Positions 2,637 through 60,220 of a DNA stretch of 64,000 nucleotides are shown here, in pieces. Source of the DNA: Minisyncoccota bacterium (GTDB lineage: Bacteria > Patescibacteriota > Minisyncoccia > Phycocordibacterales > PALSA-1337); the NCBI GenBank assembly GCA_028713005.1, contig JAQTPC010000004.1:2745-66744 (forward strand), given 5' to 3'. The notes under the pieces were generated by a model. The model did not search any database. It saw nothing but the letters and a program-made list of their open reading frames with translations, and was not told the origin of the DNA. Positions within the stretch are counted from its first letter, which is position 1. Each line of letters opens with the position of its first letter. Position numbers and translations under genes: made by a program.

Positions 2637-3269
2637 TTACACCGTAATAAAGAGGTCTTTCTTTGCACGACGAACCTTTTTGTACGATGCAGAGGCATCA
2701 TTTGTTGTATCACGATATCCAAGTGCCAATAAAACAACACTCTTTAATCCTTTTTCTTTGAGACCGAGAACCTCATCAAGTTTTGCAGGTTCAAATCCTT
2801 CCATAGGTGTTGAATCGACCTCTTCAGCTGCAGCGGCTACGAGACCTGTACCGAGAGCAATGTACGCTTGTTTTGATGCCCAGTTTATCTTCCCCGCAGC
2901 ATCCAAACTATTTACAGTACCCATAATGTATTGTTTGAATCCATCAAGTGCTTTGACATCCATGCCACGAGTATCAGCGACAAGCTTCATATAGTCATCG
3001 ACATTCTTTTCGGTGATATTGTCCCATGCTGCAAAGACGAGAAGATGTGAACTCTCTACTATCTGTGGCTGCATCCACGCAGTTGCCTGGATCTTTTTAC
3101 GAACTTCTGGATCAGTAATGACAAATACGTTATACGGAGTAAGACCATACGACGATGGAGCGAGACGGATTGCTTCCAAGATAGCATCGATCTTTTCTTG
3201 AGGAATACTTTGTCCATTCATTCTCTTTGTTGCATAACGCCATTCGAGCAGTTCTGTAAGTGTACTCAT
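2637..3269 (-). CDS. Nitroreductase-family NAD(P)H oxidoreductase
   Basis: N-terminal W-RYATKR motif, P-SSYGLTP and the overall length are typical of nitroreductase-fold proteins. Confidence 0.75.
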   Translation of the reverse strand: MSTLTELLEWRYATKRMNGQSIPQEKIDAILEAIRLAPSSYGLTPYNVFVITDPEVRKKIQATAWMQPQIVESSHLLVFAAWDNITEKNVDDYMKLVADTRGMDVKALDGFKQYIMGTVNSLDAAGKINWASKQAYIALGTGLVAAAAEEVDSTPMEGFEPAKLDEVLGLKEKGLKSVVLLALGYRDTTNDASASYKKVRRAKKDLFITV

Positions 3270-3403: not shown

Positions 3404-3742
3404 ATGTCTATGGCAACTACGTTATCTGCACGTAAAACTACTGCTTCATATATCCACTCAAAAAACACCTGCCCTGTCGCAGAAGTGGCTGAGCTTTTGT
3501 CAGATACGTGGACAATGCTCATCATCAGAGATTTACTCAATGCTCCAATGCGTTTTTGCGAACTTGAACGATCGCTCGAAGGCGTCAGCACGCGCACACT
3601 CACCCTCAAGCTCAAAAAACTGGTAACAGAAAAAATCATTTCAAAAGACGAAGAGTCTCACTTCTATTCCATAACTAAACAAGGTACACATCTTGGTGCA
3701 ATTGTTGATGCGATGAGAAATTACGGAAAAGAGTACCTGTAA
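3404..3742 (+). CDS. HxlR-family winged-helix transcriptional regulator
   Basis: CPVAEVAELLSDTWTMLIIRDLL...RFCELERSL matches the HxlR consensus. Divergently paired with a nitroreductase, a classic arrangement. Confidence 0.75.
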   Translation: MSMATTLSARKTTASYIHSKNTCPVAEVAELLSDTWTMLIIRDLLNAPMRFCELERSLEGVSTRTLTLKLKKLVTEKIISKDEESHFYSITKQGTHLGAIVDAMRNYGKEYL

Positions 3743-9750: not shown

Positions 9751-10167
9751 ATGAACACGCTTCCGTCCTTTGATAAAGCTCGGGGATCAATCAAGATCCA
9801 GCTCTTGGTCTTCATGCCCATCCTGATCCTCATCGCTGTCATGCAGACGATATGGTCACCTGCGGAAACAGATGACCCCATCGCACCAACGATACCCGGC
9901 GCGGCCCCCGCAAACCAGCTCGGAGCTTCTTTTCCAAATCAACTGATCGTGCTCGAATCTACAAATAAGAGCCAGCCCCGGACTGCTTATCTGTGGAATA
10001 GCGACCTCCAGATTTTGACCCTCGTCAGCCCGCAGAACAAAATTCCTGACGGTGAGGCACTGCATGCGGTTCAAACCTACAGGTATACCCGCACGAACTA
10101 TCCTCGGGCTGAATACACACTCATCCCGCGTATCAAACCGACGAACGCAGCACCAATCACACCCTAA
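9751..10167 (+). CDS. Hypothetical protein with N-terminal TM/signal; GC-rich relative to surroundings
   Basis: ORF only. Its composition differs from the flanking genes. Confidence 0.3.
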   Translation: MNTLPSFDKARGSIKIQLLVFMPILILIAVMQTIWSPAETDDPIAPTIPGAAPANQLGASFPNQLIVLESTNKSQPRTAYLWNSDLQILTLVSPQNKIPDGEALHAVQTYRYTRTNYPRAEYTLIPRIKPTNAAPITP

Positions 10168-11863: not shown

Positions 11864-13786
11864 TTAGACAACCTTTGCTTCCCTTTTGAGCGGGATACCC
11901 TGCGCAACGATGATTTTTTCATATTCTTCACGCTCGATTGTCTCTGTCTCAATGAGGCGCTTTGAAACTGCTTCAAAAGCCTTTTTGTGCTCTGCGAGCG
12001 TCGCAATCGCACGTTCACGAGCTTCAGTCATAATCTTTGAAACTTCACTATCGATCTCACTAGCAACTTTCTCTGAATATTCACGCTCAGCAACACCCAT
12101 TCCAAACATGACACGGCCTTGGGCACTCTCGAGAGCGATTGGGCCGATCTTATCTGACATGCCATACCGAGTGACCATATCGCGCGCGAGAGCAGTTGAG
12201 ACTTGGAGATCGTTCGATGCACCAGTAGTGATATCACCGAAGACCATTTTCTCTGCAACATATCCACCGAGTGACATAGCAATATCATCAAGGAACTCAT
12301 TGCGAGACTGGAGCTTACGTTCTTCAAAAGGCAATTTCAATGTATACCCTGCAGCACGACCACGAGAGATAATAGATATCTTGTGCACAGGATCAGCATG
12401 CGGAAGTACCGATGCGACGATAGCGTGACCAGCTTCGTGATATGCAGTAATCTCTTTTTCCTTTGGTGAGAGAACGTGACTCTTGCGCTCAGGACCGAGC
12501 ATAACTTTTTCGATAGAGCGGATGAGATCGAACTGACCGATCGTCTTTCTCTCTTCACGAGCAGCGAGGATAGCTGCTTCATTCATGAGACTAGCGAGAT
12601 CAGCACCAGAGAATCCTGGTGTACGTTCAGCGACTACTTTGAGATTGAAGTCCTCTGCAAACTGCTTTTTCTTTGAGTGCACGGTGAGGATAGCCTCGCG
12701 ATCAGCACGATCAGGAAGATCAATGGTTACGCGGCGATCAAAACGGCCTGGACGGAGGAGCGCAGGGTCAAGCACATCAGGACGATTTGTTGCAGCCATA
12801 ACTATGACTTTTTGATTCTGTTCAAAGCCGTCCATCTCGACGAGGATCTGGTTCAATGTCTGTTCACGCTCATCGTTGCCACCACCCGTACCTGAGCCAC
12901 GTGCACGACCGACAGCGTCGATCTCATCGACAAATACAATAGCTGGAGCCGCTTGCTTTGCCATATGGAAGAGGTCGCGGACGCGAGAAGCACCAACACC
13001 GACGAACATCTCGACGAACTCTGAGCCAGAGATAGAGAAGAATGCCACTCCCGCCTCACCTGCCACTGCACGAGCAAGAAGTGTCTTACCTGTACCCGGT
13101 GCGCCCATGAGGAGCACGCCCTTTGGAATCTCTGCACCGATATCGATGAACTTTTTTGGATTTTTGAGGAAGTCGACGATCTCTGAGAGCTCTTGTTTTG
13201 CTTCTTTTGCACCAGCAACATCCTTGAATGTTACCTTCTGCTTTGTATCATCTGGGAGCGTGATACGCGCCTTTGACTGACCAAACGACATCGCTTGCAT
13301 ACCTGCGCCACGCATCTGACGAGAGAGCATCCAGATAAAGAGTGCGAGGAAAAGGAGAGGAATTATAAATGGTGCGAGCTGTCCTACCCAATACCAGAAG
13401 CCAGATGGCGAGATAACACTGATAGTTGTAGAACCGAGGTCGGCAGAAGTTACACCAAAACGACTCAAACTGTCAGTGAGAGAGGCGTCGGTCTCACGCT
13501 GGGTTGTTTTGACTGTCTTGTCTTTGTACTGTGCGACAACTTCAGTGTCCTGGATGGTGAGTGAAGTAACCAAACCTTTCTTTATATCCTGCGCGAGTGA
13601 AGAAAGTGGTACTGATGTGCCTGTTGTTGATTTGCCGGAAAACTCCGCATAAAGCGTCGTAATGATCAAAAATATGATAATGACTGTAGCGATTGAATTT
13701 AAGAAATTCATCTTTGGGAAACCCTTTCCCTTCTTGCCTTGAGGCGCATTTTGGCTGTTTTTCGGTGTATTATTTTGGGGATTCAT
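11864..13786 (-). CDS. ftsH: ATP-dependent zinc metalloprotease FtsH
   Basis: Walker [19 protein letters not shown] zinc motif, and N-terminal TM segments. Confidence 0.9.
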
Positions 13787-15565: not shown

Positions 15566-16645
15566 ATGAATCACGAAACAACCTGGAACCTCTATTCATC
15601 AAACGAAGAAGCATGGGCAGCTATGCTCGCCGACTGCGCACAAGCAAAAGAAAGCATCGTCCTCGAACAATACATCTTTGTGGCGGACGACTTCGGCAAA
15701 AAGCTCATAGACATCTGCACCGAACGTGCGGCCCAGGGTGTCAAAGTCCGTTTCCTCTGGGATGCAGCTGGCAGTTTCACTCTCTGGGGTTCAAATATTG
15801 CCGAAGATCTCAAAAAGAAAGGTATTGAACTTATCTTCTGGAAGACACTTATCCCTGACTATTCAAAGATAGAAAATTTTCGTGCATGGTTCTTCCGCAA
15901 TCACCGCCGTACCCTCGTCATCGATGAACGCATCGGCTATACAGGCAGTATGTGCGTCTACGAACCAATGAAAAGTTGGCGTGATACGAACCTCCGTCTC
16001 GAAGGGTCAGTTGTGGAAGAGATGAGGAATGCATTTGATCGCATGTGGGCTCGGGCCACTCGTGCACAAGCCATGCCTGAACGTATCCATGTTCGTAACC
16101 ATGAATTCCGCTACATCACCAACTATCCTGCCCCCCGCAGACGTCATATATACACAGAACTCATCGAAGCTGTCCGTTCAGCGCGCAAATATATCTATAT
16201 TACCAATCCTTATTTTGTACCGACACGCCGGCTCGTGCGCATCTTTCGTTTGGCAGCACAACGTGGTGTCGATGTACGCATCATCATCCCAGAAAATTCA
16301 AACTATTACGCTGTGGACCTCGGGGCGCGATCATATTTCAATACCTTGCTCTCTTCAGGAGTACGTATATTTCTATATTCTGGGAATATGATCCATGCAA
16401 AGACTGCAGTCATTGATGGTGAATGGGCAACAGTCGGCAGCATGAACCTCGATCGTGTGAGCCTGCTCTACAACTTTGAAGCGAACATCGTCAGTCGCAA
16501 TGGGCGATTTGCAGAGGAGCTCGCCGCGCTCTTTGTGCGTGATATGCACGATTCCAAAGAAGTCTTGTACGAGGAATGGAAGAAAAGATTCTTCATCGAA
16601 AAGATACCTGAAAAGCTGATCACTCTCGTCCGAAAGTTTTTATAA
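15566..16645 (+). CDS. Phospholipase D / cardiolipin synthase-family protein (one degenerate and one canonical HKD motif)
   Basis: Second motif HAKTAVIDGEWATVGSMNLD. First motif is H-R-R-TLVIDERIGYTGSM. Confidence 0.7.
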   Translation: MNHETTWNLYSSNEEAWAAMLADCAQAKESIVLEQYIFVADDFGKKLIDICTERAAQGVKVRFLWDAAGSFTLWGSNIAEDLKKKGIELIFWKTLIPDYSKIENFRAWFFRNHRRTLVIDERIGYTGSMCVYEPMKSWRDTNLRLEGSVVEEMRNAFDRMWARATRAQAMPERIHVRNHEFRYITNYPAPRRRHIYTELIEAVRSARKYIYITNPYFVPTRRLVRIFRLAAQRGVDVRIIIPENSNYYAVDLGARSYFNTLLSSGVRIFLYSGNMIHAKTAVIDGEWATVGSMNLDRVSLLYNFEANIVSRNGRFAEELAALFVRDMHDSKEVLYEEWKKRFFIEKIPEKLITLVRKFL

Positions 16646-16682
16646 AATAAAAAACCACCTTACATAAGGTGGTTTTTTATTT
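16646..16682. terminator. Bidirectional terminator
   Basis: AAAAACCACCTTACATAAGGTGGTTTTTT. Confidence 0.5.
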
Positions 16683-16691
16683 TTACAAATT

Positions 16692-17471
16692 TTATTGTAC
16701 CGCTACTCCTTTTACGATCTGACCGGTCTCATCGATGATTCCTTTCTGGCGAGATGCGCTACACGTATAGAATTCGCTGGTCGACTTGTTATATGCCATC
16801 ACCTGACCCTTGCCGCCAACGCCGAGGTTGAAGTTTGACTGAACGCATGGTGAGCTGCCTGCACAAAGCGACGCTGGCGCATATGCCCAAGCACTATAGC
16901 CTGCTGTACCGGTCTTCAAGTGCGTATTATCGCCACAGGTGTGACTATCGTCACTGGTGATACCTGTTGTTCTCCATGTACAAGCCTCTTTACCGAGACA
17001 GATGCGTATAACGTGGCTACGACAGTAATATTCGATGGTATCACCGCCACCACTTGAGCCCCAGTCATTGATGTTACCGTCTGAAACTGTTCCCATTCTG
17101 CCATCACTACCACACTCTTGAGCAGCTGCACTTGGAGCTGACCATTTTACTTTTCCAGTACTGTCAGCAGCAGTGAGAAAATATCCTGCTGAAACTACTG
17201 AATTTGAAGTACTTGTTGAAACGATGAGGTTTGGTGCAATCAAGTTACCGACAACACCGAGACCACCGTCAATCTGAAGTGAATCTAATTTTTCTTGGAT
17301 GGTGGTATTACCATTGAATCCAACATTGATAGGTGCGAGAACGTTATTTGAAGGTGGGTTAGCTGGAGCATTGGTCCAGTTTGCAGCTGCAGCAACAAGA
17401 GCTGAAGCGCCGAGGAATCCACCAATAATGAGACTTGAAGCTGCGAGCACTGATTGACGAGTAAGTTTCAT
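16692..17471 (-). CDS. Secreted Cys-rich hypothetical protein (signal peptide)
   Basis: N-terminal signal/TM (LAASSLIIGGFLGASALVAAAA). Multiple Cys residues and a Gly/Ser-rich composition. No family recognised. Confidence 0.45.
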   Translation of the reverse strand: MKLTRQSVLAASSLIIGGFLGASALVAAAANWTNAPANPPSNNVLAPINVGFNGNTTIQEKLDSLQIDGGLGVVGNLIAPNLIVSTSTSNSVVSAGYFLTAADSTGKVKWSAPSAAAQECGSDGRMGTVSDGNINDWGSSGGGDTIEYYCRSHVIRICLGKEACTWRTTGITSDDSHTCGDNTHLKTGTAGYSAWAYAPASLCAGSSPCVQSNFNLGVGGKGQVMAYNKSTSEFYTCSASRQKGIIDETGQIVKGVAVQ

Positions 17472-18839: not shown

Positions 18840-20213
18840 TTAAACTGTATATTCTTTCATCCTCTCCGGCACTATTGCCTTCACATTGAGCTCGTCATTC
18901 AGACGCTGTGCGAGATGCATAGACGCTCCAGGTTCACCCATGACGACAAAAACTTCCTTGAGCTTATTTGTTCCCGTAGAAACAAACTCCACCAGATGAT
19001 CACCATCCTTATGAGCCGAGTAACCATACAGAGTTTCGATATGAGCCTTAACCTCGATCTTCTGACCGTGAATAGTGACCTTCTTTCCCCCATCAGCGAG
19101 CTCACGGCCGAGTGAACCTGACGCTTGATAGCCGACGAGAAGGATCGTACTCTTTGGATCAGTGAGAAAATGCTGTTCATGCCCGATGACACGTCCGCCA
19201 ACTGACATACCTGAACCTGCGAGGATGATTTTTGCACCATTCAAATGATCGATACCCTGAGACTCACGCTGTGACTCGACAAAAGTGAGATGCGGAAATG
19301 AAAAGACATCATCACCACCATTGATCTGCTTTTGAGCAGCTTCATTGAAAAACTCCGTACTTGCACGATATATAGCAGTAGCCTTCTCCCCCATCGGTGA
19401 GTCGAGAAATACGGGTACAGATGGAATCTTCTTATCTTTAACCAGATTATTTAATTCATACAAAAGTACCTGCGTACGATCTATAGAGAATGCGGGGATG
19501 ACGAGTGTACCACCACGTGCAAGAGTCTCAGTGATGACATGAGTGAATTCTTCCAAACGATTTTCACGAGTGTTGTGATTGCGATCGCCATAGACACTTT
19601 CCATGATGAGATAATCAACATCACCAACTGGCTCTGTATCACGGAGGAGCGGTGCTGGTGAATTGCCCAAATCACCAGTAAAAAGTATTTTCTTACCCTG
19701 ACCATTAGAATCTTTCACACTGAACTCAAACATGCTTGACCCAAGAATATGTCCTGCATCTTTGAGGAACACTGAAACACCTGGCGTCAGTTCAAACTTT
19801 TCATGATAGGCGATATTTTTCCAAAGTGGAAAGACCTGAGCAACATCATCGACGGTATAGAGTGGCTCAAGACCATTCTGTTCCGCTTCCATTGTGAGAA
19901 TATTGACCGCATCATTTAAAACAAGCAGAGCAAGCTCTTGCGTTTCAGGTGTTGAATAAATCACGCCCTTAAAGCCTTCTTTAACGAGCTTTGGGATACG
20001 TCCGACGTGATCGAGATGGGCATGCGTGATCATGAGAATATCGATCGATGAAGCCTCATAGCCAAATGGCTCGTAGTTCTGTTGTTGAGCCACTCTCTCT
20101 CCTTGGACCATACCACAATCAACGAGGATTCTTTTACCTCCAGCTTCAAAAAGAAAGTTTGCACCCGTTACTGTTCCTACGCCTGTGCAGAATGTGATTT
20201 TGTTTGGATTCAT
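18840..20213 (-). CDS. MBL-fold beta-CASP family ribonuclease/hydrolase
   Basis: HAHLDH metallo-beta-lactamase motif and the ILVDCG N-terminus. Its 457-aa length and C-terminal region are consistent with beta-CASP RNA-metabolising enzymes. Confidence 0.7.
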   Translation of the reverse strand: MNPNKITFCTGVGTVTGANFLFEAGGKRILVDCGMVQGERVAQQQNYEPFGYEASSIDILMITHAHLDHVGRIPKLVKEGFKGVIYSTPETQELALLVLNDAVNILTMEAEQNGLEPLYTVDDVAQVFPLWKNIAYHEKFELTPGVSVFLKDAGHILGSSMFEFSVKDSNGQGKKILFTGDLGNSPAPLLRDTEPVGDVDYLIMESVYGDRNHNTRENRLEEFTHVITETLARGGTLVIPAFSIDRTQVLLYELNNLVKDKKIPSVPVFLDSPMGEKATAIYRASTEFFNEAAQKQINGGDDVFSFPHLTFVESQRESQGIDHLNGAKIILAGSGMSVGGRVIGHEQHFLTDPKSTILLVGYQASGSLGRELADGGKKVTIHGQKIEVKAHIETLYGYSAHKDGDHLVEFVSTGTNKLKEVFVVMGEPGASMHLAQRLNDELNVKAIVPERMKEYTV

Positions 20214-20324
20214 ATAAACATTGTAAACGGTAAACAGTAATCGGTCTACCTGCGCAGACAGGTAAACAGAGCCATAAAGTAAAATACCTTCCCATCAGCA
20301 GATGAAAAGATATTTTACTAAGGA

Positions 20325-20450
20325 TTGCGAGAGTCAGACCTAGATATTCTAGGTGGGAGGTCTATCGCTGACATGCCTAAGCATAAGCGAATGCTAGCTT
20401 CAAGAGCCAATCGACTACCCGTTGAAAAGTTTAGGGTTTAACTCTCGCAA
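20325..20450. ncRNA. Candidate structured RNA element closed by perfect 10-bp helix (TTGCGAGAGT / ACTCTCGCAA)
   Basis: Seen in sequence. It lies within a 360-bp intergenic region. Internal hairpins include GACCTAGATATTCTAGGT and AGCAT-AAGCGA-ATGCT. The strand is undetermined. Confidence 0.25.
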
Positions 20451-20572
20451 CCTGAATTCATTGTATTCTTCTCACAGAGTAATGCAAGTGTGAATATTAT
20501 GTTACACCATTTACTTTGACAAAAAACAAAATAGATACTGCACTCGAGCTTTATTTACCTCGCTAAAATAAT

Positions 20573-21220
20573 TTACTCAAAAATACCGTCCATATGTGCA
20601 CTATACAAAACCTTTTCTTGTATAAGAATATAATCAATCAATTCGTCTTTTGAGAACCAGAGATCAATCTCTGAACGAGCTTCATCAACTGAACCAGATG
20701 AGTGGACGAGGTTACGGATCGAACGGTCCTCTGCATCAGAAAATTCATATGAATCAAGGACGAAATCGCCACGAATCGTACCGACATCTGAACTGAGTGG
20801 TTCAGTGCTACCTGTAATCTTGCGGACGATAGCAACTGCATGCAAACCCTGCCAAACCATAGCAATAACTGGCCCGGAAGTCATATATTTTGAGAGACGG
20901 TGAAGGATATGCTCACCCATTTTCACCGGATCATGAAATTTGATATTGAGCTTATGCGCTGTAGCATGAGCAATAAATTTTGCACCGGTTTTACTGACCC
21001 ACTCTGGATCGTTCATATAGTGCTTTTCTACAAGTTCTTTTGTCGGACGTACAAACTTGAGACCGACAAGCTTGAGACCGAGTCGCTCATAACGCTGGAC
21101 AACCTCTCCAATGAGCGTTCGCTGGATAGCATCTGGTTTTATAAGAACAAGAGTACGCTCGCGCTTGGGATGCATGTGATCGATTTTTGTATGTGTAGTC
21201 ATGAAGACATTGTAACGCAC
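20573..21220 (-). CDS. ndk: Nucleoside diphosphate kinase (with internal insertion and N-terminal extension)
   Basis: ERTLVLIKPDAIQRTLIGEV...NLVHSSGSVDEARSEIDLWF. The true start may be the internal Met (MHPKRE, about 21175). Confidence 0.8.
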   Translation of the reverse strand: MRYNVFMTTHTKIDHMHPKRERTLVLIKPDAIQRTLIGEVVQRYERLGLKLVGLKFVRPTKELVEKHYMNDPEWVSKTGAKFIAHATAHKLNIKFHDPVKMGEHILHRLSKYMTSGPVIAMVWQGLHAVAIVRKITGSTEPLSSDVGTIRGDFVLDSYEFSDAEDRSIRNLVHSSGSVDEARSEIDLWFSKDELIDYILIQEKVLYSAHMDGIFE

Positions 21221-55106: not shown

Positions 55107-56021
55107 CTACCTAACCTCCACGGACTCTCCGTCAGAAAGCACCCTTATGGTGTTTTTTTGTTTTAAATTCAAGCGATGATCATCGAGAATCATATAAAGT
55201 GGGTCAACATTTTTAATCTTTGAAACACGGCTTGATATTTTACTTGAAGATTGGGCGCTTGTGATAGCCTGGGTATAGACAATAAACTCTGGCTGAACTG
55301 CATTCACTAAATCCAATGAGAGAGCGCTGGCTGATGCGCTATGTGGAATAATTAAAACATTTGCCATGGGCGAAGCTTTTGCAATAAACTTTTGTATCTT
55401 TGTACTTACATCCCCTATCAACAGGAAAGCTGTACGGCCATAAGTTATTTTTAAAACTAACTCAGGCACCGAAGCTTTTGAATAGCTAAATTGTTTTGAG
55501 GTTGTCGAATGCATCGACGCAACATCCTCGCTATCAAGAGCAGGAAAAAGAACATCTACCTTGAAATGAGAGTGCTCGATAGTATCCCCCATTTTTACTT
55601 CTTTAATAGGAATATGTGATGCACTGACTGTGTTCATAAATGTCTCGTAAATCTCATCTGTTGAGCTAGCTAAACCAAGACTTCTGGTTGTGATAGCAGG
55701 AATAATAATTGACCCCACCTTATATCTATTTATGACATCTATGAGTCCAGTAACATTATTTGCATCATCATTTGTAAGCACAACCATATCAATCCGTCTT
55801 GAATAGAAAGGGATGACTTTTGTTATATAGCGAATAGCATCACTATTTGCTCCGCCATTTATCAACACCCTTTCATCTTGGGGAGTACGAATAAAAATTG
55901 CTGGTTTACCTTTCGTATTAAAAACGTACAATTCAAAACGTAGAGGCACGACACTGATATGCCATATGTACGCACTGATACTGGCAACTATTACTATTGA
56001 TATAAGAAGATATTTGATCAT
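55107..56021 (-). CDS. ComEC/Rec2-related MBL-fold domain protein (stand-alone, N-terminal TM, degenerate metal motif)
   Basis: The KPAIFIRTPQDERVLINGGANSD...RIDMVVLTNDDANNVTGL pattern parallels the ComEC C-terminal lactamase_B domain. The HxHxDH motif is replaced by TNDDAN. Confidence 0.55.
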   Translation of the reverse strand: MIKYLLISIVIVASISAYIWHISVVPLRFELYVFNTKGKPAIFIRTPQDERVLINGGANSDAIRYITKVIPFYSRRIDMVVLTNDDANNVTGLIDVINRYKVGSIIIPAITTRSLGLASSTDEIYETFMNTVSASHIPIKEVKMGDTIEHSHFKVDVLFPALDSEDVASMHSTTSKQFSYSKASVPELVLKITYGRTAFLLIGDVSTKIQKFIAKASPMANVLIIPHSASASALSLDLVNAVQPEFIVYTQAITSAQSSSKISSRVSKIKNVDPLYMILDDHRLNLKQKNTIRVLSDGESVEVR

Positions 56022-56024
56022 CTG

Positions 56025-56039
56025 CTAGGTCCGACCTAG
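56025..56039. repeat. 15-bp perfect palindrome CTAGGTCCGACCTAG (copy 1)
   Basis: Seen in sequence. It lies 4 bp upstream of the start codon of 55107..56021. Confidence 0.8.
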
Positions 56040-56112
56040 ATGCAACAAGTAGATTAACAAGTCAAAATAAAATATATATAAAAAACATCTCAAGAATAGA
56101 TAAAGGTTTTTA

Positions 56113-56127
56113 CTAGGTCCGACCTAG
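56113..56127. repeat. 15-bp perfect palindrome CTAGGTCCGACCTAG (copy 2)
   Basis: Seen in sequence. It lies 44 bp upstream of the sod start. Confidence 0.8.
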
Positions 56128-56170
56128 CAAAAAATGGTAAAATAAACTTAATAATTAACTTAAAAAATAT

Positions 56171-56770
56171 ATGAAACTATACACAGCAAAAAAATTTGAA
56201 ATACCTACTCTCAAGGGCATATCTGCAAAGTCTATCGGTGAGCACATAAACCTTTATCTTGGCTATGTAAAAAACCTAAACCTTATTGATGAAAAGCGTC
56301 TTGAGTATAAAAAAGATCGTGAAGCAAATGCATATGTTTTAGGCGAACTCAGACGTAGACTTAGTTTTGAATACAATGGTATGCGTAACCATGAAGTATA
56401 TTTTTCTTCCCTTGAAGGTGGTCCAAAAGACATAGATCCAAGTGGAGATCTCAAAAAAGCTATTGAAACTGATTGTGGACCGTTCGATGAATTTCTTAGT
56501 GGATTCAAGTCTGTCGCATCAACTGTTCGTGGTATCGGTTGGATGGTGCTCTGGTATGACAAAAAAGATGATCGTTTGCTCACCTCATGGATAGATGAGC
56601 AACATTTGGGTCAACTCAATGGTTGCGACATGATACTTGCGATCGATATGTGGGAACACTCATACGTCGCTGATTATCAGCCATCAGGAAAGAAACAGTA
56701 CGTGGAAGACTATTTCGCCAACCTTAATTGGTCAGTGATTGAGGAGAATTTCAAGAGAGCAAAGAAGTAA
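56171..56770 (+). CDS. sod: Fe/Mn superoxide dismutase-family protein
   Basis: C-terminal DMWEHSYVADY (D-x-W-E-H-A-Y) and the overall SOD architecture. The N-terminal His pattern is partly divergent. Confidence 0.7.
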   Translation: MKLYTAKKFEIPTLKGISAKSIGEHINLYLGYVKNLNLIDEKRLEYKKDREANAYVLGELRRRLSFEYNGMRNHEVYFSSLEGGPKDIDPSGDLKKAIETDCGPFDEFLSGFKSVASTVRGIGWMVLWYDKKDDRLLTSWIDEQHLGQLNGCDMILAIDMWEHSYVADYQPSGKKQYVEDYFANLNWSVIEENFKRAKK

Positions 56771-56791
56771 GCCGGTCAATAATATCTATAT

Positions 56792-56832
56792 AATAAAAAA
56801 CCGTGTGCTGATAATTGGCACACGGTTTTGTT
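56792..56832. terminator. Bidirectional terminator
   Basis: AAAACCGTGTGC-TGATAATTG-GCACACGGTTTT. Confidence 0.5.
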
Positions 56833-56847
56833 TTTACTCAACAACTT

Positions 56848-57258
56848 TCAAATGAGGGGCATCCGACAGACCGGACAAACACGAAGCCCGCTACCGTCAG
56901 GTGAATCGAGCCCCGACGTTCCCCAGTTACACACCATGCACGTTTTGGGAATAATGGGCCCCGAACTTTTTTCCCCTTGCAATAACCGAGAAGCCCCGAT
57001 AATCATCCTGAAGGGATAGAGGATAATAGTAGGTGGAACATTATTCTTTTTAGCGACAGTAACGAACGCTGCCATTTGGTTTGCTTCGCGATTCGAGTCG
57101 TGAACCTGCAAGTTGTGACGTGCCTTAACCTCGCCAACAAGCTTCACGTGTCCGTAGCGCTTGCAGAGCAATTCGGCAATTTGAACATCAATCTCATCGA
57201 TATTGTGACGTTGCACTGCAATGAGAGTATGCGGATCTTCGGCAATAGTCTGACTCAT
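56848..57258 (-). CDS. Chorismate mutase (AroQ)-like domain protein with C-terminal CxxC...CxxC zinc-ribbon tail
   Basis: IDEIDVQIAELLCKRYGHVKLVGEVK resembles the AroQ helix 1. C-terminal CMVCNW...CPVCRMP. Confidence 0.4.
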   Translation of the reverse strand: MSQTIAEDPHTLIAVQRHNIDEIDVQIAELLCKRYGHVKLVGEVKARHNLQVHDSNREANQMAAFVTVAKKNNVPPTIILYPFRMIIGASRLLQGEKSSGPIIPKTCMVCNWGTSGLDSPDGSGLRVCPVCRMPLI

Positions 57259-57272
57259 AATTAGATATAGTT

Positions 57273-58703
57273 TTAAATGGTTCCAGTTGTTTCTGATGAA
57301 AAACTACTACTTAAGGTGAACTTAGTCAACAGTTTATACAATTTAAACTTAATCACGAAAAACACCACATAAAACCCAACTACCCACCAGCCTGAAAACT
57401 GCGGAAATGTCAGTGACGCATATGGCACTCGAGCAAAACTCTCAACAATGAACAGTTCATACGTGAGGAGAAGGTGTGCGCCCCACGCACATATTTGTGA
57501 AACAACTGAAGATATGAGACCGAGCGCACCGGTAAGGAAGACGGCAAGCATTGTAAGCGGTATAAATGGCAATACAAGAATATTTGCGACCACTCCTATG
57601 ATCGAGATCTGTCCCATCATATATAGTATAAAGGGTGAAACGAATATTTGAGTGGCGAACGTAGCAGCAAATATTCCACGCATACCGAACTTTTCTGGCA
57701 CAAAATAAAATACTTTTTCGAGCGGTGTTGCAAGAAGTATGAGTCCGAGCGTTGCCAGAAATGAAAGTTGAAATGAGGGATCATGCAGGAGAATTAGTGG
57801 ATTTTGTATGAGCATGAGGCAACCAGCAAATAGTAATGCTCGAGCTACATGATAATCTCTACGAATGATATTTGCCCCAAGTGCTATGCTCGCCATGAAA
57901 CAAGAACGCACCACAGTTGCGCCACCACCTACAAGTACGCCGAACAAAATCATACCGATACCTCCAATCACGATACCCCATAATCTAGGTAAGCGTGCGA
58001 GAAGTCGACGCAAAGCATCTGCAACTATGGTGATATTGAATCCTGAAAGTACTACGATATGAATGAGCCCAACAGTCCGAAAATCATTGAGTAAATCTTT
58101 TCCGAGGGCACTTTTTTCTCCGACCACTAGACCTGCGGCCAAAGCTGAATGTGGTTCACCAAGAGTTTGGTTTAGGTTATTTACAAAACTTCTTTTTATT
58201 TTATACAGTACTGAAGTTATCCATTGTGATACTCCTGCAACATTCGCATTCTCATTTGCATCGCTTATGACCTGTGCACTCTTTATCTCGTAAAAAATAT
58301 CTTCTTTTGCAAGATACCCTTTGTAGTCAAAAGCTCGACCTGTATTACTTTTAAAATTAAATGGCGCGGACAGATTACCTGAAAAATAAATCTGATCCGC
58401 ATAATGAAACCGGGGATATAATTTTGTTTTCATTCGAATCAAAATATTTCCGGAACATGTTTCAACCTTTGCAGTATCATCTATAGATGAACTTAATTGA
58501 TCCAAAGAAATATTCTGCGCTTTCACTACAAGCACCTGGCCACTCTCAGAAAATGAAGGATCTTTCACTATAGTTCCATATCCATAAACAGTATGTTTTA
58601 AACAGGAACCAATATCAGAAATATATTGGTGTAGTGATAACGATACTCGAAGTCCTGCAAGACCAATAATGATTGTCCAAAATATAATAACTCGTTTATT
58701 CAC
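57273..58703 (-). CDS. comEC: ComEC/Rec2 competence channel protein (DUF4131 + competence domain), lacking the C-terminal MBL domain
   Basis: Polytopic. GLIHIVVLSGFNITIV...FQLSFLATLGLILL matches the ComEC competence domain. Confidence 0.75.
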   Translation of the reverse strand: MNKRVIIFWTIIIGLAGLRVSLSLHQYISDIGSCLKHTVYGYGTIVKDPSFSESGQVLVVKAQNISLDQLSSSIDDTAKVETCSGNILIRMKTKLYPRFHYADQIYFSGNLSAPFNFKSNTGRAFDYKGYLAKEDIFYEIKSAQVISDANENANVAGVSQWITSVLYKIKRSFVNNLNQTLGEPHSALAAGLVVGEKSALGKDLLNDFRTVGLIHIVVLSGFNITIVADALRRLLARLPRLWGIVIGGIGMILFGVLVGGGATVVRSCFMASIALGANIIRRDYHVARALLFAGCLMLIQNPLILLHDPSFQLSFLATLGLILLATPLEKVFYFVPEKFGMRGIFAATFATQIFVSPFILYMMGQISIIGVVANILVLPFIPLTMLAVFLTGALGLISSVVSQICAWGAHLLLTYELFIVESFARVPYASLTFPQFSGWWVVGFYVVFFVIKFKLYKLLTKFTLSSSFSSETTGTI

Positions 58704-58773
58704 AACGAGTCATAGTACAACTGCAAAATAAATTTTTGATGAAATAATAATCAAGAACCGATGAAGGAATTTC

Positions 58774-58788
58774 CTAGGTCCGACCTAG
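58774..58788. repeat. 15-bp perfect palindrome CTAGGTCCGACCTAG (copy 3)
   Basis: Seen in sequence. It overlaps the rnhA stop codon and lies 71 bp upstream of the comEC start. Confidence 0.8.
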
Positions 58789-59504
58789 AAGGCGCTGAAC
58801 TCGCGAATAATACTCGCCTCATCTTCTCTGCTCAATGATTTTCTGTAACGTGTACCTTTTACGCCCTTTACCCTCTTTTCACACTCTGCCCATGTCTTAT
58901 GTGTCTCGATAACTCCGCCAACCATACTGATATATGAATAGGCTTTTGCGCTCGACTTTAATGAACTCGATTTTTTCTTTTTTAAATCCGCTTCATTATG
59001 TGAAACATTAAGAATATCAGGTAGATCATATTGAGAGAGTGCTCCTTTGTAGAGTTTAGTATCCTGTCCATCAGCAAAGCTTGTTGCTATATGATCACAA
59101 CGTTCATTGCCGAGGATGCCGATATGACCGCCGACATATTTCCATTCAACTTTTCTACCTGCAACACATGCATCCAGTCTCATCCAAAGATCTTTGTTGA
59201 GTACATCTTCTTTTGCTTTGGTGATCCACTTATTTTTCTTCCAGCCATGGATCCATTTGGTGATGCCATTGATCACATATGACGAGTCAGTGTGAACTAA
59301 AATATGAGAATCTTTTGCTGTAGATGAGATACCCTCAACACATGCCGTGAGTTCCATTCTGTTATTTGTCGTATGTTTTTCATCTCCACCTAGTTCGTTA
59401 ACCTGATCACCCGCAACTACAACAGATCCCCATCCCCCAGGACCAGGATTGCCTCTCGATGAGCCATCGGTAAAGATCGTTATTTTTGTTTCAGTGTTAT
59501 TCAT
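58785..59504 (-). CDS. rnhA: Ribonuclease HI with C-terminal hybrid-binding (Cauli_VI-like) domain
   Basis: DGSSRGNPGPGGWG, the TNNRMEL and HTDSSYVING motifs, and a C-terminal YSYISMVGGVIETHKTWAECEKRVKGVKGTRYRKSLSREDEA resembling the RNase H1 dsRHbd. Confidence 0.8.
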   Translation of the reverse strand: MNNTETKITIFTDGSSRGNPGPGGWGSVVVAGDQVNELGGDEKHTTNNRMELTACVEGISSTAKDSHILVHTDSSYVINGITKWIHGWKKNKWITKAKEDVLNKDLWMRLDACVAGRKVEWKYVGGHIGILGNERCDHIATSFADGQDTKLYKGALSQYDLPDILNVSHNEADLKKKKSSSLKSSAKAYSYISMVGGVIETHKTWAECEKRVKGVKGTRYRKSLSREDEASIIREFSAF

Positions 59505-59596: not shown

Positions 59597-60220
59597 TCAG
59601 TGATTTTTAGTGTCACTAGACGGAGATCCTGTGCGCCTAGAGATAAGTAGCAACTGTTCAATCGCATCTGAGCGCAGTCTGGCTACGCTCGCGATCATTG
59701 ATTCACGACTCGAAATAGAACCTTTCGTCCATTCATCAATAGCTGACCAAAAGACAATGCTAAAATCTTCCGCCGGCTTGACGACGGCATAGAATTCGTC
59801 ATCCTTGCCACTCAAGGAATTAATCTCAGACTTCCAACAATCAAAATAGGATTCTTCGTGAGGTGACACTGGACGAAACCAGGACCGTTGAAAATACCAA
59901 AGACCATATGTCCCACCCATCTCCGAAAGCTTGAGAAGAAATTGTTCAATGTAGATATGGTCAACCTTTCCATCTAAGCTTCTTCCTGAATTGACCAGGA
60001 TTGGAAAAGCAAAAACTCGATCCTTCACCGAAAAACTTAATGGTGCACGAATCGCACCATCGTAAAATCTCAAGTGACGGTTGACCCCTTCAATCTCCAC
60101 CGTAGGATTATTTAATATGCTGATATATTCCCGAAACGGTTTAAACGGAAGCACCTTGAGGTGAGGACGAATCATTTCACCGGCTTTTTCTAATGAGAAC
60201 TTGGACGTATCCTTACTCAT
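59597..60220 (-). CDS. Hypothetical protein
   Basis: ORF with natural-looking composition. No family recognised. Confidence 0.4.
   Translation of the reverse strand: MSKDTSKFSLEKAGEMIRPHLKVLPFKPFREYISILNNPTVEIEGVNRHLRFYDGAIRAPLSFSVKDRVFAFPILVNSGRSLDGKVDHIYIEQFLLKLSEMGGTYGLWYFQRSWFRPVSPHEESYFDCWKSEINSLSGKDDEFYAVVKPAEDFSIVFWSAIDEWTKGSISSRESMIASVARLRSDAIEQLLLISRRTGSPSSDTKNH

Follow-up and report, generated by a model that had tools for sequence, protein, structure and literature searches.

The window, a 64-kb stretch of contig JAQTPC010000004.1 considered here at its full length, carries three exact copies of a 15-bp perfect palindrome, CTAGGTCCGACCTAG (CTAGGTC-C-GACCTAG, two 7-bp arms around a single centre base), all at a locus that encodes the competence protein ComEC in two separate halves. 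Homologues of the N-terminal half (ComEC-N) place the window in the Patescibacteria (names include Pacebacteria, Taylorbacteria and Paceibacterota), and the source is a metagenome-assembled genome of the Paceibacteria. Read along the minus strand, the locus comprises recJ, a gene of an unannotated family here called hyp207 (59597-60220), rnhA (RNase H, 58785-59504; Pfam RNase_H, E 1.9e-43), ComEC-N (57273-58703), a chorismate mutase type II-like gene downstream of it (56848-57258; Pfam CM_2, E 1.4e-16), the plus-strand Fe/Mn superoxide dismutase gene sod (56171-56770; Pfam Sod_Fe_C, E 9.7e-22), copy 2 of the palindrome, a 73-bp spacer, copy 1, and a gene for a metallo-beta-lactamase (MBL)-like protein (55107-56021). 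ComEC-N, of 476 amino acids (aa), contains the DUF4131 and Competence channel domains of Pfam and is without an MBL domain; 2538 homologues were found and, among the best 120, most are ~440-500 aa long. The 304-aa MBL-like protein has no Pfam match. It is the detached C-terminal module of ComEC, matching positions 479-628, the C-terminal MBL part, of the NCBIfam model TIGR00361 (ComEC_Rec2) at E 1.5e-7.

All three copies of the palindrome are extragenic, one of them with a 4-nt overlap with a stop codon, and all have C as the centre base on the plus strand. Copy 1 (56025-56039) lies in the leader of the MBL-like gene and ends 3 nt before its ATG (56021, minus strand). Copy 2 (56113-56127) lies between the divergent sod and MBL-like genes, with the sod ATG (56171) 43 nt beyond it, and is surrounded by an imperfect 27-bp palindrome (56107-56133). 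Copy 3 (58774-58788) lies at the 3′ end of rnhA, whose stop codon (58785-58787) is the first TAG of the palindrome on the minus strand, and is 70 nt before the GTG (58703) of ComEC-N. No further site within two mismatches of the 15-mer exists in the window, dinucleotide-preserving shuffles gave a mean of 0.05 matches, and the observed count was reached in none of 100 shuffles. No other palindrome with arms of at least 7 bp is found more than once in the window. The 15-mer holds two CTAG tetranucleotides, of which there are 55 in the 64 kb. The first-pass annotation, which had reported three identical 15-bp palindromes at these positions relative to the genes and in numbers beyond chance, was correct in this. 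It had also described the copies as free of extended flanking similarity, and here it was right only in part, as copies 2 and 3 each adjoin a related A/T-rich array of ~55 nt.

Species representatives in GTDB were scanned for the locus, and 21 related loci (L002-L022; other loci and contigs are numbered likewise) were recovered with ComEC-N homologues of 53-79% identity. They largely share the order recJ-rnhA-comEC(N)-sod-MBL-L28-M50-S12-S7, which 20 of the 21 keep in part or in full. The ComEC-N and MBL-like genes are both present in 18 of these loci, with sod between the two halves in 17 of the 18 (L008 is the exception); the remaining three loci are short or rearranged. As gene order is largely kept, the split comEC with an intervening sod is ancestral in the clade. 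The chorismate mutase-like gene was found by tblastn in only two of the related loci, L002 and L004. Neither the palindrome nor a CTAGGT-N3-ACCTAG variant is present at the locus in any of the 21. The closest sampled relative, L023 (GCA_040384245.1, ComEC-N 83% identical), likewise has both halves with sod between them, and it has the palindrome at all three orthologous sites. Its copy 3 (at 9889) is identical to that of the window, centre included; its copy 1 (at 12130) has identical arms and a flipped centre; and its copy 2 is a perfect 13-1-13 palindrome, TTTTTGCTAGGTC C GACCTAGCAAAAA. Overall the arms are identical at 42 of 42 positions and the centre is flipped from C to G in two of the three copies, whereas 33 of 222 aligned positions of intergenic DNA outside the palindromes differ (14.9%). 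A decayed fourth copy lies within a 32-bp insertion in the sod leader of L023, and constitutes a presence/absence polymorphism at the locus; this copy apart, the motif is found nowhere else in the window or in 21 kb of L023. Since the L023 sites are kept and the arms unchanged amid diverged flanks, the element predates the split of the window genome from L023, is restricted to this lineage, and has arms that are constrained or homogenised. The motif is conserved in the orthologous promoters of the closest species alone, which counts against the regulatory role first suggested for it; the first-pass annotation had itself named such an absence as refuting that role.

The exact 15-mer was sought in metagenomes, and at least 135 sites were found on at least 120 contigs; the orthologous locus is not among the matches listed. 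At 70 of the 135 sites listed the 15-mer forms the apex of a longer palindrome (~2 expected), and 34 of the 135 have A-tract/T-tract flanks resembling bidirectional terminators. The contigs with several copies are different, for in at least eight of them (L057, L066, L074, L099, L100, L101, L110, L135) the palindrome accompanies an open reading frame (ORF) of 219-236 aa that resembles REP-associated tyrosine transposases (RAYTs), the enzymes associated with repetitive extragenic palindromes (REPs). The palindrome brackets the ORF on both sides in seven of the eight if a one-mismatch copy (L100) and a copy with A at the centre (L074) are included; the eighth, L135, has a copy upstream and another within the ORF. 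The upstream palindrome lies 4-24 nt before a TATAAT-like box, and the downstream one is at or overlaps the stop codon, which at the RAYT genes of L074, L155, L158 and L159 is supplied by the palindrome itself. The eight proteins are 32-83% identical to one another and all contain N-H-x-H (the HUH motif) and Y-x-H-x-N. Their best NCBIfam match is NF047646, REP-associated tyrosine transposase (E 1e-7 to 7e-12), but the scores of 30-46 bits are below the curated cut-off of 80, so that they are distant relatives of RAYTs. The Pfam family Y1_Tnp falls just below its cut-off for the L057 protein and is a precomputed assignment for many family members. The family is large (at least 6495 members at E <= 1e-10); members named by taxon are from Patescibacteria, Paceibacterota, Nomurabacteria and Moranbacteria, and JGI calls one of them 'REP element-mobilizing transposase RayT'. 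The MraZ protein encoded on L066 falls into a 90%-identity cluster with Paceibacterota and Nomurabacteria proteins.

As an unbiased check, six RAYT loci were fetched through the protein alone (L152, L154, L155, L157, L158, L159). Two of the six are bracketed by the 15-mer: at L159 exact copies lie upstream of the gene and at its stop codon, with a third directly after rpoD, and at L158 the upstream copy is exact and the downstream one, CTAGGTCAGACCTAG, has A at the centre. The upstream palindrome of L157, TTAGGTCGGACCTAA, is a compensatory variant, with the outermost pair changed on both sides so that the palindrome is kept, and TTAGGTCGGACTTAG lies downstream. In L152 and L155 the RAYT gene has CTAGGTCTTGCCTAG on both sides. 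The palindrome of L154, GCGGAAGC-N-AGGCTTCCGC, is unrelated and is found on both sides of the ORF as well as within it. Because it is seen in loci fetched through the protein alone, bracketing of the RAYT gene by a palindrome of its own is general for the family, and YTAGGTC-N-GACCTAR is one common palindrome type. The loci also share synteny, rpoD-RAYT-dsbA being common to L155, L158 and L159, and aaRS-RAYT-mraZ-rsmH (aaRS, aminoacyl-tRNA synthetase) to L066 and L154; each holds 2-4 copies or near-variants per 15-20 kb. Perfect DnaA boxes (TTATCCACA) were observed 3-8 nt upstream of REP-type palindromes in L054 (5540-5660), where two units of box and palindrome are 79 bp apart, and in L154 (9950-9990).

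The palindrome can also be found within coding sequence. On either strand it has one open reading frame, nCT AGG TCS GAC CTA Gnn, which reads x-R-S-D-L-x. Insertions of RSDL occur in frame in a XerC-like integrase (between the SAM-like and catalytic domains), GatB (between its two domains), UvrA (between the two ATPase halves), RecG (near the N-terminus) and TsaD (near the C-terminus), and also in Sua5, ThyX and HolB. Moreover, an alignment of the eight RAYT-like proteins shows a 'PPRSDLG' insertion directly after the HUH motif in three, and L135 has a separate SPRSDLG insertion near its C-terminus. These in-frame insertions, like the fourth copy of L023, are read as signs of mobility. One RAYT clade was observed to carry a third copy of the palindrome in frame at this position, directly after the HUH motif; flanking and internal copies lie at 9967, 10276 and 10738 in L154, at 4712, 5017 and 5442 in L066, at 780, 1192 and 1500 in L057, and at 1263, 1568 and 1996 in L110. 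The internal copy matches the flanking copies even where the palindrome is of a wholly different type, as in L154, and the three copies at such loci therefore appear to evolve together.

Taken together, these data make it probable that the palindromes of the window are orphan REP-type elements, with the RAYT-like HUH/Y1 family as the associated enzyme. A REP-like hairpin element had been one of the two possibilities raised by the first-pass annotation, and it gains support from the occurrence of the identical 15-mer beside RAYT-like genes, and in frame within unrelated genes, of other Patescibacteria. At the RAYT loci of related bacteria the upstream palindrome lies against the -10 box of the gene and the downstream copy at or in its stop codon, and orphan copies are found at gene ends and, by way of the single open frame, inside genes. 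Such an element would have entered the rnhA/comEC-N/sod/MBL locus before the window genome and L023 diverged, and a RAYT in this genome would be expected to bind, move or maintain the copies.

Several observations weigh against this interpretation. The enzymes are candidate partners of these hairpins by association in sequence, and a tblastn search found no RAYT-like gene in the window or in the 21 kb of L023. The three copies span 2.8 kb, with none in the other 61 kb, and all three are near a promoter or start. Classical REPs are dispersed and number tens to hundreds of copies. Strict membership of the REP/RAYT class is weakened because the copies are few and clustered, but the mechanistic analogy is not. 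The 42 unchanged arm positions would have a probability of ~0.001 under neutrality, and an operator under selection would look alike. A 7-1-7 palindrome among hairpins holds only ~8 nt of information, and part of the metagenomic signal is expected by chance. For this reason the matches with A-tract/T-tract flanks may be unrelated, and they were discounted as independent evidence; the chance argument does not apply to the RAYT-flanking or multi-copy loci.

The placing of the copies at the locus can be read against the promoter modules of the two ComEC halves, which were aligned by eye to each other and to the orthologous loci, with promoters and transcription starts predicted from the letters. 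The MBL-like module (56040-56112, minus strand) consists of ~11-bp phased repeats of the TTTATC / TTCTTGAG type, to which we ascribe a promoter function, with a putative -10 box TAATCT at 56051-56056. The ComEC-N module (58704-58773, minus strand) is a repeat array of the same kind with a putative -10 box TACTAT at 58712-58717, 8 nt before the GTG, which suggests that the ComEC-N mRNA is leaderless or nearly so. On the plus strand sod has a putative extended -10 box, TGgTAAAAT (56135-56143). Copy 2 covers the -35 position of the latter, copy 1 lies between the putative MBL -10 box and the ATG, and on the upstream side of each array a gap of 7-8 nt separates the palindrome from the first repeat, copy 3 at the ComEC-N array and copy 2 at the MBL array. 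Orthologous loci have similar arrays in front of ComEC-N and MBL, ending in a -10-like hexamer at 6-8 nt from the start codon, a spacing suggestive of leaderless mRNAs for both genes. Of 20 loci tested from other species, ten (L003, L005, L009, L011, L013, L014, L015, L018, L019, L021) have a single further match to the ComEC-N upstream region within ~20 kb; it lies upstream of the MBL-like gene and is 85-100% identical over 19-67 bp. In the window the two arrays are less alike (roughly 65% as judged by eye). The modules are thus near-identical within a species yet different between species, which points to concerted evolution or to an activator that would bind direct repeats.

On the reading of the palindromes as orphan REP-type elements, a single insertion may have been copied to the second promoter module by such homogenisation, giving rise to copies 2 and 3. 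As the modules are near-identical in sister species and the positions equivalent, one copied insertion would explain two of the three copies, a plausible local cause of their clustering, and we infer a gene-conversion origin for them. The 3′ flank of copy 1 (CAGATGATCAA) resembles that of the fourth copy of L023 (CAGACTATCAA), and this likeness suggests local segmental copying. Copy 1 sits where the ComEC-N module and comparison with L004 would give a near-leaderless MBL start; the ATG is 3 nt after the TAG of the palindrome and ~8 N-terminal residues present in L004 are absent here, and copy 1 would interrupt such a start. A second case of a palindrome beside these arrays was observed in L021, where a different 8-1-8 palindrome, ACCATGTC-W-GACATGGT, occurs twice (~9820-9890 and 12470-12540), just upstream of the ComEC-N and MBL arrays and so at the relative positions of copies 3 and 2 in the window. 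This could be a palindromic element of independent origin which the shared module has captured. The module itself offers a starting point for understanding competence gene control in these organisms.

We consider it a long shot that a RAYT-like protein of this genome binds the three hairpins and that these sites have been co-opted as a common control element of both ComEC halves and sod. If so, DNA uptake in a Patescibacterium with a reduced genome would be regulated, in transcription or translation, by a domesticated transposase. Both the perfect conservation of the arms and the positions at promoter edges would then be accounted for; these positions mirror those of the palindromes abutting the -10 box of RAYT genes.

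An operator function was the other possibility raised by the first-pass annotation, namely that the palindromes are duplex binding sites of a dimeric helix-turn-helix (HTH) factor coupling DNA uptake to oxidative stress, in a lineage-specific regulon that comprises sod and the genes of ComEC-N and the MBL-like protein. Binding by a dimer would agree with the 7-1-7 geometry. The positions of copy 2 over the putative sod -35 and of copy 1 between the putative MBL -10 and ATG, the unchanged arms amid diverged flanks, and the restriction of the motif to this locus in both genomes would all suit an operator. However, the motif is missing from the same promoters in all 21 distant loci despite the retained gene order in 20, the promoter module common to ComEC-N and MBL in half of the loci tested is there without it, the copies are all perfect and identical where sets of operators are typically degenerate, and the same 15-mer brackets RAYT-like genes and sits inside unrelated ORFs in other Patescibacteria. 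Nor was a linked regulator found near the copies. The regulon is therefore not supported, and we regard it as improbable. Among candidate regulators, the 207-aa hyp207 lies between recJ and rnhA in the window and L023 (8459-9079), but not in L002 or L004, and has homologues in L019 (8354-8926) and L029 (10001-10600). Its family (~190-210 aa, ~40 representatives at 50% clustering, conserved N-terminus M-x-x-D-x-S-K-F-S-L) recurs between these two genes in several Paceibacteria. The AlphaFold2 model (pLDDT 93) shows a long four-stranded beta-sheet and a 45-residue helix; the protein has no match to a family or to a PDB sequence, the model no PDB match at E <= 0.001, and the best weak fold matches are NTF2/cystatin-like (TM-score ~0.24 over ~70 residues), with no HTH. 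As its homologues occur at the same place in L019 and L029 without the motif, hyp207 was rejected as the cognate binder. Elsewhere in the window what looks from its sequence like an HxlR-type winged-helix regulator gene (3404-3742, plus strand) was observed divergent from an apparent nitroreductase-like gene (2637-3269, minus strand), as in the known redox-sensing pairs of the HypR/HypO type. No motif-like site lies near the HxlR-type gene, and it was dismissed as the cognate factor. A LexA/SOS-type box was rejected too, as conservation throughout the clade would be expected of one, and a literature search gave nothing relevant.

An action at the level of RNA, with the origin of the sequence being secondary, is equally hard to credit. 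Copy 3, at the 3′ end of rnhA, would then be a terminator or insulator, and copy 1, 3 nt before the MBL ATG, a hairpin of the 5′ leader that would control how stable the MBL-like mRNA is or how it is translated; the frequency with which the core caps A-tract/T-tract hairpins in the metagenomes would agree with this, as would the stabilisation of upstream mRNA by REPs in other bacteria. The hairpin is weak, however (6 bp and a triloop, -5.1 kcal/mol; z-scores in context of 0.12, -0.83 and -0.48 at the three copies), no T-run or U-tract follows any of the three, the T-run and A-run that flank copy 2 are in the wrong order for a terminator, and copy 2 is probably upstream of both transcription starts. 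No Rfam match was found at the three sites. An intrinsic terminator or stable RNA hairpin was rejected on the grounds of energy and the missing U-tract. It is also unlikely that the palindromes are the ends of an insertion sequence (IS) of the IS200/IS605 type, or miniature derivatives of one (PATE/MITE-like), rather than REPs of a domesticated single-copy RAYT. Although the flanked gene has Y1/HUH motifs and weak matches to IS200 families (Pfam Y1_Tnp; NF033573, E 0.029), its best curated match is to RAYTs. Low copy numbers clustered at the gene would be those of an IS with few orphan ends, and L152 has two family members within 4 kb, but the chromosomal positions next to rpoD and dsbA, or to an aaRS gene and mraZ, are conserved across species and orphan copies occur without any gene fragment. 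Moreover, the two resolved ends have the same core rather than distinct left and right sequences, the differences between them being confined to the centre base or to one to three bases (L074, L100, L157, L158).

Two further origins were rejected. An invertible promoter between copies 1 and 2 does not agree with the 73-bp spacer having the same orientation in the window and L023, where the centre base alone differs. A phage origin is likewise not indicated, as only five viral contigs contain the 15-mer and the sole contig with two copies is an unrelated high-GC phage. In this GC-rich IMG/VR contig (L025, 1680-1800) two copies of the 15-mer were observed, each capping a 31-bp hairpin repeat, GACGAAAGG-core-CCTTTCG, together with a near copy; these are probably coincidental hairpin repeats.

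The REP/REPIN and RAYT (TnpA_REP) systems of Proteobacteria (Nunvar 2010, Bertels & Rainey 2011, Ton-Hoang 2012, as summarised in PMC5581495) provide the closest comparison for the orphan REP-type elements proposed here. As in E. coli and Pseudomonas, a short palindrome lies on both sides of an HUH/Y1 transposase-like gene, intergenic orphan copies are often at gene 3′ ends, the palindrome type varies between RAYT loci, and the best curated match is NF047646. The gene is at a syntenic, housekeeping-like position, as described for RAYTs (PMC5581495). The Patescibacterial system differs in that its conserved unit is only a perfect 7-1-7 palindrome of 15 bp, the copies are very few and lie close together, some stand in frame within ORFs, that of the RAYT included, the host belongs to a reduced-genome lineage, and the proteins fall below the cut-off of the curated RAYT model. 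Classical REPs also carry a 5′ GTAG head, which is not present in the 15-mer. Rickettsia palindromic elements (RPEs) are similar in being tolerated in frame in the linkers and termini of housekeeping proteins, but are ~100-150 bp long as opposed to the 15-bp core, and are not known to have a cognate transposase, whereas the 15-mer is linked to a RAYT-like gene. IS200/IS605 elements and their miniature derivatives share a Y1 HUH enzyme with hairpin-forming sequences at both gene ends; unlike these, the genes described here are syntenic, apparently single-copy and have the same core at both ends. Operators of the Fur family and of similar dimeric repressors have 7-bp arms and a 1-bp centre, and the copies near the sod promoter are reminiscent of them, but the sequence is unrelated, there is no linked regulator, orthologous promoters show no conservation and the same sequence occurs in unrelated contexts. 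The DNA uptake sequences of Neisseria and Haemophilus, found as inverted pairs in terminators, resemble the palindromes in their arrangement beside competence genes and in the terminator-like hairpins capped by the core in other contigs; they occur, however, at ~1 per kb genome-wide, as against none in the remaining 61 kb.

For the window, a regulon that was appealing as an idea but found no support thus gives way to a concrete, testable identity of the motif. REP/RAYT systems have been described mainly from Proteobacteria, and a literature search of incomplete coverage returned no paper linking RAYTs or REPINs to Patescibacteria. The data point to a very large Patescibacterial RAYT-like family with YTAGGTC-N-GACCTAR as a cognate palindrome, to locus-specific palindromes, to an internal in-frame copy in the RAYT gene itself and to RPE-like insertions in housekeeping proteins. 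They thereby offer a handle on how repeat elements persist in extremely compact genomes.

Two side observations remain. A 359-nt intergenic region of the window (20214-20572) folds far better than its shuffles (minus strand -115.4 kcal/mol, z -6.6; plus strand z -5.3). It has no Rfam match at E <= 1 in the region searched (20150-20650), and a structured RNA, highly divergent or so far undescribed, is probable here. The hairpin GACCTAG...CTAGGT is one local stem of this structure; the arrangement at 20337-20356, which had been thought related to the palindrome, is not a copy of the motif but an ordinary stem of 6-7 bp. Finally, in L029, from a relative of the window organism, a reverse transcriptase gene (RVT_1) adjoins a bAvd gene (15872-17266), the hallmark pair of a diversity-generating retroelement, inserted between an M50 peptidase gene and rpsL.

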